Source of the DNA: Bacilli bacterium
Lineage (GTDB): Bacteria > Bacillota_I > Bacilli_A > RFN20 > CAG-826
Assembly (NCBI GenBank): GCA_017534425.1
Contig: JAFXWB010000007.1
Location: 17,550 to 81,549 of the forward strand
Reading direction: 5' to 3'
Length of the DNA: 64,000 nt
In this document: positions 1,222 to 60,374 of the stretch, piece by piece
Position numbering within the stretch: the stretch's first letter is position 1
Layout of the letters: the number at the start of each line of letters is the position of its first letter
The notes under the pieces: model-generated
The model's input: only the letters and a program-made list of their open reading frames with translations
Told to the model about the DNA's origin: nothing
The model's database searches: none
Translations under genes and position numbers: made by a program

Positions 1222-1695
1222 ATGGTAAATAAAATTGAACTTACAAAAGAAGGCGCAGAAAAGTTAGAAAAAGAACTTCGCCACTTAATTGATATTGATC
1301 GTCCAGAAGTCATCGAAGCTTTACAAGCTGCTCGTTCACAAGGCGACTTAAGCGAAAACGCTGATTATGATGCTGCAAGAACAAAACAAGCAGAAATCGA
1401 AGGCAGAATTAAAGAAATCGAGAATATTCTCGCAAATGTTAAAATCATTTCAGAAAAAACAACCAAATCAAAAGGTGTTGTTCTTGGTTCAAAAGTCACA
1501 ATCAAAGATTTAAGTGATGACACAGTTGAAACTTACACAATTGTTGGAACAGTTGAAGCAAACCCACTTAAAGGTTTAATTTCAAACGTTTCTCCACTTG
1601 GTCGTGCAGTTGTTGACAAAAATATCGGCGACATCGTTTCAGTTCACGCCAACAAAGAGTACAAAGTCGAAATCTTAAATATCGAATATAAATAA
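1222..1695 (+). CDS. greA: Transcription elongation factor GreA
   Basis: 157 aa. Conserved coiled-coil motif GDLSENADYDAAR and a C-terminal FKBP-like domain. GGAG SD upstream. Confidence 0.92.
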   Translation: MVNKIELTKEGAEKLEKELRHLIDIDRPEVIEALQAARSQGDLSENADYDAARTKQAEIEGRIKEIENILANVKIISEKTTKSKGVVLGSKVTIKDLSDDTVETYTIVGTVEANPLKGLISNVSPLGRAVVDKNIGDIVSVHANKEYKVEILNIEYK

Positions 1696-1707
1696 TTTGT
1701 ATTAATC

Positions 1708-1885
1708 ATTAAAGAGGAATCCGAAAGGGTTCCTTTTTTGTTACTTTTATGACCTCTAAAAATATTAAAAAATTTTATTAATTAAAATATTTTAAAAATT
1801 AAGAAAAAACATAATTACTAATTTTAGACGGATATATATAGTGAAGGGGGATAAATTTATGAAATATAAATTATCTAGCAAAGAC
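1708..1885 (+). repeat. Copy A of a ~170-bp duplicated terminator/promoter/SD/start module (partner is 57822..57996, inverted)
   Basis: Direct comparison with the reverse complement of 57822-57996. Shared blocks are a 29-nt identical run (1751-1779), a 13-nt run, and a conserved SD+ATG block. Confidence 0.85.
1715..1740 (+). terminator. Intrinsic terminator of greA
   Basis: aggaatcc-gaaa-gggttcct forms an 8-bp stem with a GAAA loop, followed by TTTTTT. Confidence 0.8.
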
Positions 1886-2035
1886 ATGAAAACTATTATT
1901 ACCGGAGAGATTGCTTTAGCTACAGTTATGGCTATATGCGCGATCGCGCTCATGGCCGTAATAGTATATAAGTTATTTATGTCTAATGAGGGCACTTCTC
2001 AAGTTCCTGGCGGTTGGAAGTTTTCCTGGAAATAA
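1859..2035 (+). CDS. 58-aa single-pass membrane peptide with a C-terminal PGG-WKFSWK tail
   Basis: Strong SD GAAGGGGG lies 8 nt before the ATG at 1859, so the listed start at 1841 is probably too early. It has one hydrophobic helix. Its stop overlaps the radC ATG (TAATG). Confidence 0.55.
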   Translation: MKYKLSSKDMKTIITGEIALATVMAICAIALMAVIVYKLFMSNEGTSQVPGGWKFSWK

Positions 2036-2703
2036 TGAAAATATCTGATATTCCTATTAATTTACGCCCACGCGAGAAGGCATTAATGTATGGAATAGAA
2101 GAACTTTCAGATCAGGAACTTTTAGCTCTCATCATTGGCTCTGGTGGTAGAGGTAATTCTGCCATCGATATAGCTGGAGAGCTACTAAAAACACACGCGA
2201 ACTCAATGGAGTCTCTTTCAAATACGAATTATTGCTCTCTTTTATCGTATCTAGGGCTGAAAAAATCTATTGCTTTGCGCCTTTTAGCGACTTTCGAATT
2301 TAATAGAAGACTTAATACTTATAAGTACAAAAATCCATCCAGAATTGATACCATTCACGATGTCTATTTTCGTTATCAAAATATGGAGAATTTAGACCAT
2401 GAAGAACTGGTAATTTTGATGCTTGATTTGAAGCATAGAATTATTAAAGAAAAAGTACTTTACAAAGGCACTTTTGATTCGTTTGAAATTGATGTTAGAC
2501 AGGTTTTACAAGAGCTTGTTTTAGCTAAAGCTAAATTTTTCTATTTAATTCATAATCATCCGGATGAAGATTCTAGTCCAAGTGATGATGATATCTTGTC
2601 CACAAAAATAGTGGAAAAAGCTTCTAAAAATATGGGAATAAATTTAATTGATCATCTTATTATTTTTAGAGGAGGATTTTCATCTATAAAAATTGAAATT
2701 TGA
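2035..2703 (+). CDS. radC: RadC-like JAB/MPN domain protein
   Basis: N-terminal LRPREK..G...LSD.ELLA helix-hairpin-helix region and JAMM motif HNHPDEDSSPSDDD. The start is taken at MKISDIP (2035), overlapping the upstream stop. Confidence 0.88.
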   Translation: MKISDIPINLRPREKALMYGIEELSDQELLALIIGSGGRGNSAIDIAGELLKTHANSMESLSNTNYCSLLSYLGLKKSIALRLLATFEFNRRLNTYKYKNPSRIDTIHDVYFRYQNMENLDHEELVILMLDLKHRIIKEKVLYKGTFDSFEIDVRQVLQELVLAKAKFFYLIHNHPDEDSSPSDDDILSTKIVEKASKNMGINLIDHLIIFRGGFSSIKIEI

Positions 2704-2944: not shown

Positions 2945-3045
2945 TTGTCGCCTCACAAGCTACAACCGCATAGAAAAGGTATAGTCAACTTAATGCCTTT
3001 GGCATTAGACCTTAATAGCGAGTCCTTAGTGAGAAAGTAGAGGTA
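2945..3045 (+). promoter_or_regulatory. 5' leader of rplU, possible L21-leader-type ribosomal protein leader
   Basis: ~100-nt untranslated leader with hairpin aatgcc-ttt-ggcatt, in the position where Firmicutes carry an L21 leader. The motif itself was not verified. Confidence 0.3.
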
Positions 3046-56675: not shown

Positions 56676-57848
56676 CTATAAATTACATGAATCGAAGAAT
56701 CTACGTTCGATTTTGGCATTTTCTTTCCTAAAGGAAAGGTTATTTAACAACTGATTGTAAGAAACAAACCCTGCATAATACATTACAAAGTGGAAAATAA
56801 CAAAGTTACATCCAATGTTTTGTGTCACAAACATCATCGCTACTGCAAAAGCAAAAGACAAAAAGATGTAAAAGATTTCTTTTATTCCTTCTTTAAACAT
56901 TAGTTTATCAGCCTTGAAGCTTGCCTCGATCGCCAAATCTTTTACTGAACTAGCATCTTTAAATGCTTGATTTTCAAGTTCGCCTATACGATTTTTAGTT
57001 TCTTCACCACTTTTTGAAAACATGATTAATTCTAGGAGTTTAAATAAAATTAAAGCTAATAGAACAAACACATTTCTAAAATCATTGAAGCAAAGCAAAA
57101 ATGTAACAGTAAACGCTAATAAAATCGATGCCAAAGTTTGACGATTGCAGGTGAAAAATTGTTTTTTAAATTCATTAAATTGAATGTACTTATCTTTAGT
57201 ACAATTTTTCTTTAATTCAAAGTATTTTGGAATATACTCCTTATCAAAAGTATAAACAAGTTTATAAAGAATACATTTTTCTGCTATTTGAGTGCACACA
57301 AACAGAACTAGAAATGCCAATGAAAATAAGAAGTTTTCACTCTTGTTGAGTAGATAAAAAGCCGCAATTAATAGACCTGCCGAAAATAGAGAAACTAATG
57401 AACTGAGTAAATTTAGTTTTGGAGAAATAACATGTTGTCTATATTTCTCAATTTTAATTACATTTTCAGGATTTTCTGCCTCCAGTACAACACATCTCCA
57501 TCTTCTTAAAAACTCATCTTTCTTCATTTTTACTACACCACGACCAGGGTCATAAATGATAAGACTCTTTTTCTTTCTTTTCTTCACCATAACAACGTGG
57601 TTATCGTCAATTAGAGTTAAAGATGGAGTTTTAATACAATCGAAATATTCTTTTGTGCAACCGCTTCCTTCTAAAGTTACTCCATAAGTTTTACTTATTT
57701 GCACTAAATCATCGAGACTATAATATTCGCGCTTAGTGGGCTTAGGAATAAAAAGATATGATTTGTCTTTAGCAAGTGTAGCCAAAAGCATTTTTAGTGA
57801 GGCAAAACCACAATCATGATCGTTGCCTTGATAGATAAAGTACTTCAT
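56676..57848 (-). CDS. C39 peptidase domain fused to a ~6-TM PCAT-like membrane domain, no ABC ATPase domain
   Basis: The start is taken at the ATG at 57848, 8 nt after SD GAAGGGGG. The catalytic set Q7/C13 (YQGNDHDCGFASLKMLL), His (DDNHVVMV) and Asp 16 residues later (IIYDPGRG) is present. Hydrophobic helices follow to the C-terminus at 390 aa. No Walker motifs. Confidence 0.75.
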   Translation of the reverse strand: MKYFIYQGNDHDCGFASLKMLLATLAKDKSYLFIPKPTKREYYSLDDLVQISKTYGVTLEGSGCTKEYFDCIKTPSLTLIDDNHVVMVKKRKKKSLIIYDPGRGVVKMKKDEFLRRWRCVVLEAENPENVIKIEKYRQHVISPKLNLLSSLVSLFSAGLLIAAFYLLNKSENFLFSLAFLVLFVCTQIAEKCILYKLVYTFDKEYIPKYFELKKNCTKDKYIQFNEFKKQFFTCNRQTLASILLAFTVTFLLCFNDFRNVFVLLALILFKLLELIMFSKSGEETKNRIGELENQAFKDASSVKDLAIEASFKADKLMFKEGIKEIFYIFLSFAFAVAMMFVTQNIGCNFVIFHFVMYYAGFVSYNQLLNNLSFRKENAKIERRFFDSCNL

Positions 57849-57996
57849 AAATACTTCCCCCTTCACTATATCTATCCACCCAAAAAATGACTTTCTGCTA
57901 TTTTGACCTTGTTTAAAATATTTTATAAATAAAATTTTTTAATATTTTTAGAGGTCGTAAAAAACAAAAAAGAACCATTTCAGATTCCTCTAGTTT
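57822..57996 (-). repeat. Copy B of the duplicated terminator/promoter/SD/start module (partner is 1708..1885)
   Basis: The reverse complement aligns with 1708-1885. The 29-nt identical run is at 57928-57956. Confidence 0.85.
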
Positions 57997-58102
57997 AATT
58001 GGTCAAATTATTTCATATTACATCTTGTTAATTTTTCTAGGACAATCTTAGAAATAAAGGTGTTTAATATTTCATTAAATATTGCTAAAATGATTAGTAA
58101 TT

Positions 58103-59662
58103 ATGGCTATAGAAAATAAAATAACAACATTTTTAAACAAAAGAACTTGGATTATTCCTTTGTTATTCGGACTTATGTGTCTATGTTTAGTCTCATCACT
58201 TCTCGGTGTTGAACTAAAAGGTGTAAGAAATATGGATCATTTCTTGACATTTAATACTGGCGCGGAACTGGCAGCAATATTTGCTGGGGTAATGGTAACG
58301 TTTTCGATATTGCCATCTTACAAAAGACAAAGTGGCTACACTCGAGTATTCGTTTCTTTAATCGCAGTACTTTGCTTTTTAATGGCATGCGATATCGGTG
58401 AAGCTCTAGTTGATAAGATTCCTGAATTAACTTGGTTAAATAAAACTTTTGCGACTCTTGTTTGGGCAAACGAAACAGCTGTTTGGTTCTTTTTCTTTGT
58501 TTATTGTACGCACGTATTAAAGAGCCAGGGAAAAGTAATTTCGATTTCTTATTTGATTGGTGTTATTACGCTTGTAATATTTGTTTTAATTCCTGTTGTT
58601 ACAGTCGGAAATCCACTTTATTTTAAAGTTATAGACGGAGTCTATTATCGTAAAGCAGCTGGTGATCACTACTTATGGTACATTTCTCGATTTCCATCAG
58701 TCATTTTTAGTGTTTTAACAATCATTGCTATTTTCCTTTCTAAAGAAAAAATTAGAACAAAAATTATTATTTCTATTTTTATGGGACTTCCACTCGTTGC
58801 AATGGGTTCAGGTGGATATAAAACAGGCGTTGCCGTTCAATATGTCGCAATGATGATGTCTGTTGTATTAATGTTTGCGTTCTTATTTTCTGATAATGAA
58901 AAAGATTTGTTCTCTACAAATAAAGAACTTGGTCTTGCAACCAATATTCAAAAACATATGCTTCCATCAATCTTCCCTGCTTTTCCTGACAGGAAAGAAT
59001 TTGATATTTTTGCATCAATGTCACCTGCTAAGGAAGTTGGCGGAGACTTTTATGATTTCTTCTTAATAGATGATTATCATCTAGGTCTTGTCATGGCTGA
59101 CGTTTCTGATAAAGGTATCCCTGCTGCTTTATTTATGATGGCATGCAAAATCATGGTTCAAAACTATGCAATGATGGGGAAATCACCTTCTGAAGTTTTA
59201 ACTTCAGTTAATAATCAAATTTGTCAAAACAATCAAGATGAAATGTTTGTAACAATTTGGCTTGGAATTTTAGATTTAAAAACCGGTATATTAACTGCTG
59301 CCAATGCTGGTCATGAAAAACCTGCCATCCAAAATGATGAAGGCAAATTTGAATTATTTAAGGACACTCACGGATTTGTTGTGGGTTGGTATAAAGGCGT
59401 TAAATATGTTGATTATCAAGTTCAACTTAAAAAAGGAAGTAAAATCTTCCTTTATACTGACGGAGTTCCTGAGGCCACTTCTGCTAATGGACAATTTACA
59501 CGTGAAAGAATGGTAAAAACACTTAACAAGTACCGTGATATGCAACCACAAGAAATTATCCAAAATATGAAAGATGATATTGATTTGTTTGTTGGTCAAG
59601 CTGATCAATTTGATGATATAACTATGTTATGTGCAGAATTTAAAGGTTACGATAATGAATAA
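58103..59662 (+). CDS. Multi-pass membrane sensor fused to a SpoIIE/RsbU-type PP2C serine phosphatase
   Basis: The N-terminal ~265 aa carry ~7 hydrophobic helices. The C-terminal domain has GGDFYDF, MADVSDKG, LYTDG and QFDDITML motifs. Confidence 0.85.
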   Translation: MAIENKITTFLNKRTWIIPLLFGLMCLCLVSSLLGVELKGVRNMDHFLTFNTGAELAAIFAGVMVTFSILPSYKRQSGYTRVFVSLIAVLCFLMACDIGEALVDKIPELTWLNKTFATLVWANETAVWFFFFVYCTHVLKSQGKVISISYLIGVITLVIFVLIPVVTVGNPLYFKVIDGVYYRKAAGDHYLWYISRFPSVIFSVLTIIAIFLSKEKIRTKIIISIFMGLPLVAMGSGGYKTGVAVQYVAMMMSVVLMFAFLFSDNEKDLFSTNKELGLATNIQKHMLPSIFPAFPDRKEFDIFASMSPAKEVGGDFYDFFLIDDYHLGLVMADVSDKGIPAALFMMACKIMVQNYAMMGKSPSEVLTSVNNQICQNNQDEMFVTIWLGILDLKTGILTAANAGHEKPAIQNDEGKFELFKDTHGFVVGWYKGVKYVDYQVQLKKGSKIFLYTDGVPEATSANGQFTRERMVKTLNKYRDMQPQEIIQNMKDDIDLFVGQADQFDDITMLCAEFKGYDNE

Positions 59663-60062
59663 TTACCAGGTACCAGCAAACGTCGAATTAATCAATAAGA
59701 TGATAGATCCTATCATTTCTTCTCTAGAAGAAATTGAAGTTGAACATAAAAAGATTTATCAAGTAACTCTAGCATTAGAAGAGATCTTTGCTAACATTTC
59801 TAAATATGCTTACCCTTCTGGTGAAGGGATAATCGATATATTTTACGAAATCAAAAAAGACGAAAAACAACTAAAAGTTGTTATTAAAGATAAAGGCACC
59901 GCTTTTAATCCGTTAGAGAAAGAGGATCCTGATTTAGCCGCTTCAGTTTCAGAAAGAAAAATAGGTGGATTAGGTATTTATATTGTTAAAAATATTATCG
60001 ATGATATAAAATATCAACGAATCAATAATGAAAATATATTAGAACTCATTAAACAATTATAA
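59655..60062 (+). CDS. RsbW/SpoIIAB-type anti-sigma serine kinase (HATPase_c)
   Basis: N-box EEIFANISKYAY, DKGTAFNP and GGLGIYIV. ~135 aa. The ATG at 59655 overlaps the phosphatase stop. Confidence 0.8.
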   Translation: MNNYQVPANVELINKMIDPIISSLEEIEVEHKKIYQVTLALEEIFANISKYAYPSGEGIIDIFYEIKKDEKQLKVVIKDKGTAFNPLEKEDPDLAASVSERKIGGLGIYIVKNIIDDIKYQRINNENILELIKQL

Positions 60063-60077
60063 TTGGAGGGCAAAATA

Positions 60078-60374
60078 ATGACTATTAAAGAAAAAAGAGA
60101 TGGAAATAAACTTGTTGTTAGTGTTGAAGGAAGAATTGACACTAATACATCACCAGAACTTAGCGAATATTTCCAACAACATCTTAAAGATGTTAAAGAA
60201 CTTGAACTTGATTTAGAAAATGTAAATTATGTTTCATCAGCAGGTTTAAGAACCATTCTTTTTGCCCAAAAAACGATGGATAAACAAGGCAAGATGGTTG
60301 TTTCACATGTTTGCAAAGAAATCATGGAAACATTTGAATTAACTTGCTTCACTGACATTTTAACAATTATCTAA
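60078..60374 (+). CDS. STAS-domain anti-sigma-factor antagonist (RsbV/SpoIIAA-like)
   Basis: 98 aa with the phosphorylatable-serine motif NYVSSAGL. The ATG at 60078 follows a GGAGGG SD. Confidence 0.82.
   Translation: MTIKEKRDGNKLVVSVEGRIDTNTSPELSEYFQQHLKDVKELELDLENVNYVSSAGLRTILFAQKTMDKQGKMVVSHVCKEIMETFELTCFTDILTII

Follow-up and report, generated by a model that had tools for sequence, protein, structure and literature searches.

The question raised by this locus is what a 58-residue peptide encoded directly ahead of radC does for its host, and which protein, if any, processes it. The locus lies in a 64,000-nt stretch of contig JAFXWB010000007.1 from a Bacilli bacterium (assembly GCA_017534425.1, positions 17,550 to 81,549), referred to here in its entirety as the window, and the small gene occupies positions 1859-2035 of its forward strand. 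A first-pass annotation of the window had proposed that a C39 peptidase or the JAB-domain protein RadC cuts after a Pro-Gly-Gly (PGG) near the C-terminus, freeing the hexapeptide WKFSWK as a signal or antimicrobial. The analysis described below points to the other end of the molecule. The N-terminus looks, from its residue pattern, like a bacteriocin-type double-glycine leader, and the small protein is interpreted, with moderate confidence, as a leader-processed single-pass membrane micro-protein whose processor would be a C39 protein encoded elsewhere in the window.

Identification and conservation of the small gene

The ATG at 1859-1861 is preceded by GAAGGGGG (1843-1850, forward strand), which on direct reading is a Shine-Dalgarno sequence ending 8 nt before the start codon; the same sequence is present in the copy of this region ahead of the C39 gene. 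The open reading frame (ORF) comprises 58 codons and a stop and encodes MKYKLSSKDMKTIITGEIALATVMAICAIALMAVIVYKLFMSNEGTSQVPGGWKFSWK. Its TAA stop codon (2033-2035) ends in the A that is also the first base of the radC ATG (2035-2037).

Relatives were collected in several searches. A word-indexed search of 5.8 billion proteins returned 156 relatives with 66-100% identity, nearly all of exactly 58 residues, all labelled hypothetical and all from assemblies of uncultured 'Bacilli bacterium'. HMMER, run exhaustively on 1.84 billion cluster representatives, yielded 59 clusters at 50% identity, and a second profile search contributed about 110 further members. More than 300 relatives of approximately 58-60 aa are found in uncultured gut and digester Bacilli. 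Because the exhaustive search recovered only 59 clusters, the family is a narrow one, but it is real. The small peptide matched no Pfam, NCBIfam or PADLOC family, and a profile search of solved structures gave chance matches to transmembrane helices only; the protein represents a previously unannotated family, conserved throughout a broad set of uncultured Bacilli from gut, rumen and digesters. No relatives were present on viral contigs in the viral collections searched, and a phage or holin origin was dropped for that reason.

The small gene was found in 24 species genomes and 74 metagenome loci. Between species, the mean proportion of synonymous differences (pS) was 0.68, at which synonymous sites are saturated, whereas the mean proportion of nonsynonymous differences (pN) was 0.22; omega was approximately 0.1-0.15 where it could be computed. 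The conserved start is the ATG at 1859, and an upstream GTG at 1841 that is used by some gene callers is not conserved, one relative (L005) having a stop codon two codons ahead of the equivalent ATG. More than 100 loci agree in the length and start of the gene. It belongs to the core genome, is present in single copy, and keeps one housekeeping position even between deep lineages (Obg 47-91% identical). The small ORF is a genuine gene under purifying selection. The first-pass annotation had called it from its strong Shine-Dalgarno sequence and the ATG at 1859, and had left its conservation in relatives to be established; the call was borne out on both counts.

In two longer database proteins (P0142 and P0156), the transmembrane-plus-tail part of the family forms the C-terminus. 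It follows a multi-pass membrane protein in one of them, and in the other an N-terminal part that we take to resemble a phage tail fibre. These may be gene-calling read-throughs or real fusions.

The N-terminal leader

To define the N-terminal pattern, 274 non-redundant family members were aligned on the invariant Gly that precedes the hydrophobic segment. Counting back from this anchoring Gly (position -1, 100%), the alignment contained Ile, Val or Leu at -4 (80%), Met, Leu or Cys at -7 (78%), Glu or Asp at -8 (83%), Ser or Thr at -11 (81%), and Leu at -12 (86%). The window peptide carries L5(-12), S6(-11), D9(-8), M10(-7), I13(-4), T15(-2) and G16(-1). Substrates of C39 peptidases have been described with the leader consensus Leu(-12)-x3-Glu(-8)-Leu(-7), in which the side chains at -4, -7 and -12 dock in a groove of the C39 domain, and with a cleavage site made of Gly at -2 and one of Gly, Ala or Ser at -1 (PMC6363468). 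The hydrophobic residues at -12, -7 and -4 and the acidic residue at -8 are all present in the window peptide. The Gly at -2 is not, its place being taken by Thr15 of the Thr15-Gly16 pair. Residues 1-16 (MKYKLSSKDMKTIITG; 1859-1906, forward strand) are thus homologous to double-glycine leaders and form a leader of that type, with Thr-Gly instead of Gly-Gly.

Across the family, position -2 is Thr in 45% (a clade that is over-sampled), Gly in 25%, Val in 15% and Pro in 5%. A true Gly-Gly was found in 68 of the 274 members and in 22 of the 75 distinct peptides obtained from loci with enough downstream sequence. Many relatives read LSxxELxxIxGG followed by Glu; distant examples are MSRLSNLELSNVVGG followed by EAITLGAVMAILAIAIVSVIIYKLFLSETGKAQLPGGYKFEWK, and MKRMLKEEELKSINGG followed by EGITIASIL... 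In the clade of the window Thr15-Gly16 is invariant, and positions -12, -8, -7 and -4 are conserved even there. On direct comparison, KLSSKDMKTIITG of the window and the stretch KLTEKEMANIIGG of the pediocin leader, as printed in PMC6036575, are identical at 7 of 13 residues. When the 64-kb window was scanned with a relaxed leader pattern, the small ORF was the sole ORF with a leader-like N-terminus. Sub-threshold matches to Bacteriocin_IIc and TIGR01847 were obtained for one or two of 34 relatives (best E = 0.0011); the window peptide itself matched none of the bacteriocin models PF10439, TIGR01847 and TIGR03949.

The residues that the first-pass annotation had described as a basic N-terminus are real, and because the window peptide fits the leader pattern position by position they are better read as the leader; the PGG on which that annotation concentrated appears to be the wrong Gly-Gly. 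In this family a double-glycine-type leader is carried by a core, syntenic and slowly evolving gene, not by a variable bacteriocin.

A pilin or Flp prepilin was also considered for the Gly-Glu junction and was rejected: the Glu lies at +1, not +5, and there was no model match, Flp_Fap not being among the families listed for the small peptides. ComGE and GspJ gave isolated weak matches, to one member each (E = 0.14-0.29).

In one lineage, radC is preceded by a tandem pair of double-glycine-leader peptides (L032, 3029-3383; L033, 2839-3193). The first is a 56-aa peptide, MKRELSINELNNVEGG followed by FGIAAV...VPGSFIFRWF, and the second a 60-aa family member; genes for a MinD-like protein and an M50 peptidase lie downstream. 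Such a tandem layout of leader peptides is typical of two-peptide bacteriocins.

Transmembrane helix and C-terminal tail

The structure of the small peptide was modelled with AlphaFold2 using an alignment of 85 sequences. The model comprises a short leader helix at residues 7-12, predicted with moderate confidence, a break at residues 13-15 (Ile-Thr-Gly), a transmembrane helix at residues 16-41 with a predicted local distance difference test (pLDDT) score of 89-95, and two strands (45-48 and 54-57) joined by the PGG, for which pLDDT was approximately 61. The helix of the predicted mature peptide, residues 17-41, is encoded at 1907-1981 (forward strand), and C27, A28, A30, V34 and Y37 within it are invariant in the clade of the window. 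The model supports the single-pass membrane peptide that had been proposed in the first-pass annotation. A perfect 12-nt palindrome, GCGCGATCGCGC, is found at 1938-1949 (forward strand) in the codons for Cys-Ala-Ile-Ala of the transmembrane part; it is specific to the window genome, relatives using other codons for the same residues.

The conserved tail, residues 42-58, is encoded at 1982-2032 (forward strand), with the PGG at 2006-2014 followed by WKFSWK. S42, E44, G45, P50, G51, G52, W53, K54, F55 and W57 are invariant in the clade. In the wider family G51 and W57 remain invariant, and S42, G45, P50, G52 and F55 are at least 90% conserved; several relatives have extra residues beyond the Trp, some extending well past it. 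The conservation of the PGG and tail, which the first-pass annotation had proposed to check in related genomes, is therefore near-complete, but the flanks of the PGG are unlike a leader. Counting from the PGG, there is a conserved Gly at -8 where the consensus has Glu, a Thr at -7 in the window, and a Pro at -3. The simplest reading, made with low confidence from the model, is that the PGG forms a structural turn; the resulting hairpin would gather Trp53, Phe55, Trp57 and the lysines at the membrane surface. Because the tail is near-invariant across deep lineages, it does not suggest a diversifying, strain-specific pheromone.

The C39 protein

The candidate processing partner is encoded at 56676-57848 on the reverse strand. 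Its 390-residue product has an N-terminal Peptidase_C39 domain (PF03412, E = 2.8e-17), in which Q7, C13 and H84 do not vary among 56 homologues and D100 is retained in at least 90% of them. Because these catalytic residues are conserved, the peptidase is judged to be maintained as an active enzyme. In the AlphaFold2 model (pLDDT 85), the peptidase domain is followed by six long helices (residues 143-387) that form a membrane domain of the ATP-binding cassette (ABC) exporter type. Foldseek placed structures of PCAT1, a peptidase-containing ABC transporter (PCAT), at the top (E approximately 1e-13, query TM-score approximately 0.6), followed by the isolated protease domains of LahT and ComA. The catalytic Gln, Cys, His and Asp and the six-helix membrane domain of PCATs are thus present. 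A nucleotide-binding domain is not: the last residue is number 390, and the next gene is ybeY.

The ATPase-less form is characteristic of the group, as nearly all homologues among the 120 listed are 388-398 aa long, and the order rpsU-C39-ybeY-cdd-era-recO-glyS was found in every locus examined, down to 31% identity. The C39 protein is 49% identical where Obg is 80% identical; its gene is a core gene and a fast-evolving one. The NCBIfam model of the Mbov_0121 family gave a weak match (E = 2.4e-8), far below its cut-off.

In comparison with PCAT1 of Clostridium thermocellum (substrate CtA) and with ComA/ComC, the C39 protein shares the catalytic residues and its predicted fold superposes on that of PCAT1. 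It differs in stopping after the membrane domain, so that ATP-driven export of the PCAT1 kind cannot work, and in being encoded 55 kb from its presumed substrate gene instead of next to it.

Shared upstream regions

The two unlinked genes have closely similar upstream sequences. The region at 1690-1866 (forward strand), bounded by the stop codon of greA and codon 3 of the small ORF, aligns with approximately 57841-58013 on the reverse strand, before the C39 gene, with 83% mean column identity. The aligned module, delimited by alignment, repeat scan and blastn, spans an intrinsic-terminator-like hairpin after greA (1711-1738, forward strand; a 12-pair stem and then a T run in the terminator scan), an AT-rich promoter region, the identical ribosome-binding site, and the codons ATG-AAR-TAY. 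A consensus scan between hairpin and ribosome-binding site gave no convincing -35/-10 pair. The module is the sole long repeat in the 64-kb window, and the duplicated promoter and 5' end noted in the first-pass annotation are confirmed, with equivalents in two more genomes.

In those two genomes the C39 gene and the small gene also lie on one contig each (L002/L034 and L036/L035). The blocks shared within a genome, as aligned by blastn, were 84 nt at 90% and 22 nt at 95% in the window, 44 nt at 95% in L002/L034, and 53 nt at 98% in L036/L035. They differ in sequence between genomes and were the sole significant matches in the loci searched. When small-gene and C39 upstream regions were compared against shuffled sequences, pairs from the same genome gave z = 24-30 in three of three genomes, whereas comparisons between genomes gave z < 6.5. 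In sets of about 30 and then about 107 small-gene upstream regions, the one closest to each C39 upstream region was that of its own genome. Four further C39 upstream regions (L038 and L114-L116) gave weak, uncertain matches to small-gene regions, their partner genomes probably being outside the set.

As judged from these alignments, the pattern indicates that the regulatory regions of the two genes have probably been homogenised repeatedly (gene conversion) or copied repeatedly from one to the other. Seen in three genomes only, it is taken here as the best indication available that the two genes act jointly, and it would represent an unusual regulatory coupling in which unlinked genes have near-identical upstream sequences in each genome, apparently through concerted promoter evolution.

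In the window, an operon for a membrane-bound SpoIIE/PP2C phosphatase, an anti-sigma-type kinase and a STAS protein (58103-60374, forward strand) sits divergently between rpsU and the C39 gene; it is also present in L035 and is absent in L034, L038 and L114-L116. Because this operon is inserted there, no gene lies ahead of the hairpin in the C39 copy of the module for it to terminate.

Coupling to radC

The gene that follows, radC (2035-2703, forward strand), encodes a protein with a helix-hairpin-helix and a JAB domain. It was identified by PF04002 (6.3e-29), by PF20582 (the UPF0758 N-terminal domain) and by TIGR00608 (147.9 bits against a cut-off of 133.85), and it carries HNHPDEDSSPSDDD, an HxH-x7-S-x2-D motif, in accordance with membership in the RadC family. 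The strict motif was present in 58 of 65 coupled radC genes. In 24 of 24 species genomes radC directly follows the small gene, and it does so too in distant lineages that have valS in place of greA on the upstream side. The stop codon of the small gene overlaps the start codon of radC in 49 of 65 pairs, mostly by 1 or 4 bases. The translational coupling and the intact JAMM motif described in the first-pass annotation can accordingly be retained. Across species genomes the small peptide is 51-81% identical and RadC 36-69%.

For 66 of the 75 distinct peptides radC was the next gene, and one more was the first of the tandem pair. The remaining eight (L063, L068, L071, L072, L074, L079, L082 and L085) have rplU directly downstream with no room for radC, and keep an intact peptide with its PGG-aromatic tail. 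Because these eight persist without radC next to them, coupling to radC is the rule and not a requirement. In all eight, position -2 is Val, Cys or Pro.

The suggestion that RadC is itself a Gly-Gly-directed peptidase found no support. RadC shares the metal-binding HxH-x7-S-x2-D motif with JAMM/JAB peptidases that act on the Gly-Gly termini of ubiquitin-like proteins. However, RadC-type JAB domains form a separate clade. On the evidence of domain fusions, PMC3239186 argues that their substrates are nucleic acids, which they may cleave as nucleases, and places the origin of peptidase activity in another branch. That inference leaves no basis for such a role here and corrects the idea that RadC acts on the small peptide, which eight lineages keep with no adjacent radC. 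The substrates in ubiquitin-like systems are moreover beta-grasp proteins, whereas the model of the small peptide consists of a transmembrane helix with a hairpin. A literature search for RadC together with double-glycine peptides found only papers on streptococcal competence.

Proposed mechanism and alternatives

If the small protein is processed by the C39 protein, the peptidase would bind the leader helix and cut after Thr15-Gly16. The product would be a 42-residue peptide consisting of one transmembrane helix and a short aromatic, cationic hairpin at the membrane surface. Under the positive-inside rule, Lys38, Lys54 and Lys58 would keep the tail cytoplasmic and the acidic new N-terminus would face outward. 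A partner without an ATPase may do no more than cut the peptide and let it pass laterally into the membrane, and the product would remain in the producer's membrane as a housekeeping factor instead of serving as a diffusible signal. RadC would be co-expressed through translational coupling, as neither protease nor obligatory partner. A C39 peptidase whose ATPase has been lost would then have a concrete candidate substrate in the small protein. A more far-reaching version, offered tentatively, is that a bacteriocin-type system has been domesticated as a housekeeping module, in which an ATPase-less descendant of a PCAT recognises and cuts the leader of a core micro-protein and releases the helix sideways into the cell's own membrane without ATP, the two unlinked promoters being kept in step by repeated gene conversion. 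The parts (double-glycine leader, C39 peptidase, PCAT-type membrane domain) are familiar, but the arrangement is not: the peptide is core, the partner lacks an ATPase, the genes are unlinked with a homogenised promoter, and the Gly at -2 is often replaced.

Several observations weigh against processing by the C39 protein. The weightiest concerns the cleavage site, where the family reverses the known pattern, with an invariant Gly at -1 and Gly at -2 in only about one quarter of its members, and we know of no characterised C39 enzyme that accepts a residue other than Gly at -2; leader cleavage may be weak, altered or lost in the lineage of the window. The C39 gene was never within 10 kb of the small gene in the more than 100 loci searched, no ATPase partner was found, which leaves export unexplained, and the hairpin region of the model has a pLDDT of only approximately 61. 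Alternatively, the small membrane protein may not be processed at all. Its leader-like N-terminus would then be a relic, or a helix for binding in the cytoplasm, and it would work with RadC, its tail for example tethering RadC to the membrane. The usual lack of Gly at -2 speaks for this, as do the position next to radC of 66 of the 75 distinct peptides, the overlap seen in 49 of 65 pairs, and the better conservation of the peptide than of RadC. We nevertheless consider this unlikely, although it deserves to be kept in view, because the eight distinct peptides followed by rplU, from several lineages, retain gene and tail with no radC. Moreover, -12, -8, -7 and -4 are conserved in the Thr-Gly clade as well, which is not what a relic in decay would show, the active site of the C39 protein is kept, and the small gene has its promoter in common with the C39 gene and with no other gene.

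The same leader could belong to a class II, possibly two-peptide-derived, bacteriocin or membrane-active toxin that is exported after leader removal and hits competitors or the producer. Several features recall pediocin PA-1 and the class IIb bacteriocins or otherwise speak for this: a leader of 15-18 residues with L-12, E-8, L/M-7, I/V-4 and a terminal Gly, a small mature part (about 42 residues here) that is hydrophobic and cationic, the tandem pair in the lineage of L032 and L033, the weak matches of some members to bacteriocin families, and the existence of a PCAT-like partner. The window peptide departs from these in its Thr-Gly, in reaching no bacteriocin model threshold, and in being encoded by a single-copy, syntenic core gene under strong purifying selection, at a housekeeping position held across deep lineages. 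Its neighbours are greA or valS upstream and radC or rplU downstream; no immunity-like gene or complete ABC exporter was noticed in the annotated neighbourhoods, in which no systematic search was made and no dedicated immunity-gene model was used. The C39 protein lacks an ATPase domain and the peptide is absent from viral contigs, so that we regard a bacteriocin or toxin as distinctly improbable. Release of WKFSWK by C39 or RadC after the PGG is far less probable again. The near-invariance of the PGG and the following aromatic residues, and the association of the ORF with both a C39 gene and a JAB-domain gene, can be cited for it, but no result of the analysis speaks for such a release: the residues ahead of the PGG miss the pattern reported in PMC6363468 (Pro at -3, Gly instead of Glu at -8 and, in the window, Thr at -7), the true leader pattern is at the N-terminus, and the PGG is modelled, with low confidence, as a hairpin turn. 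The tail is in addition too invariant for a pheromone that determines specificity, some relatives extend well past the Trp, RadC-type JAB domains are inferred nucleic-acid enzymes (PMC3239186), and lineages without radC at this position keep the tail. To the remaining alternative, that the ORF is a chance or a regulatory upstream ORF for radC and no functional gene, we attach next to no weight: it is short, lacks an annotated family and lies directly ahead of radC, but its amino acid sequence is kept while synonymous sites are saturated, over 100 loci show the same length and start, and it survives in lineages with no radC at that position. The regulatory version was rejected on the conservation of the amino acid sequence.

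Under the preferred reading, in which the C39 protein processes the small protein, two further systems offer comparisons. The portion of PMC6609329 that cites Dirix et al. 2004 states that mycoplasmas carry C39 proteins without apparent double-glycine peptides. These orphan C39 transporters (the Mbov_0121 family; gene 0401 of JCVI-syn3A) resemble the present case in occurring in reduced-genome hosts of the Bacilli/Mollicutes type with no recognised substrate (PMC6609329); they retain the ATPase, whereas the C39 protein of the window lacks it and has a candidate substrate. The small-protein family is thereby a candidate double-glycine-type substrate in reduced-genome Bacilli related to mycoplasmas, and the domesticated module, if it is true, would point to the type of substrate used by the 'orphan' C39 proteins of Mollicutes-like bacteria. 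The cyanobacterial double-glycine secreted proteins that enable biofilm formation (PMC4997328) are similar in having a physiological and not an antibiotic role, but they are soluble and secreted via a complete transporter, whereas the small protein is a transmembrane helix.

Neighbouring RNA features

No Rfam model reached its gathering threshold anywhere in the window, and around the small ORF there was no relevant match. Below threshold, an L21 leader (RF00559) was located at 2954-3036 (forward strand) before rplU, scoring 34.5 bits against a gathering cut-off of 36 and for that reason missed at default thresholds. Between radC and this leader lies a stretch that is GC-rich in an otherwise AT-rich genome (2715-2895, forward strand), with a terminator-like hairpin at its end (2862-2883). 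It has no Rfam match, and its predicted fold was only mildly better than that of shuffled sequences (z = -2.15). In the close relative L036 it is approximately 73% conserved over 230 nt, and a gene caller placed a 133-aa ORF there; the stretch may be a small RNA.

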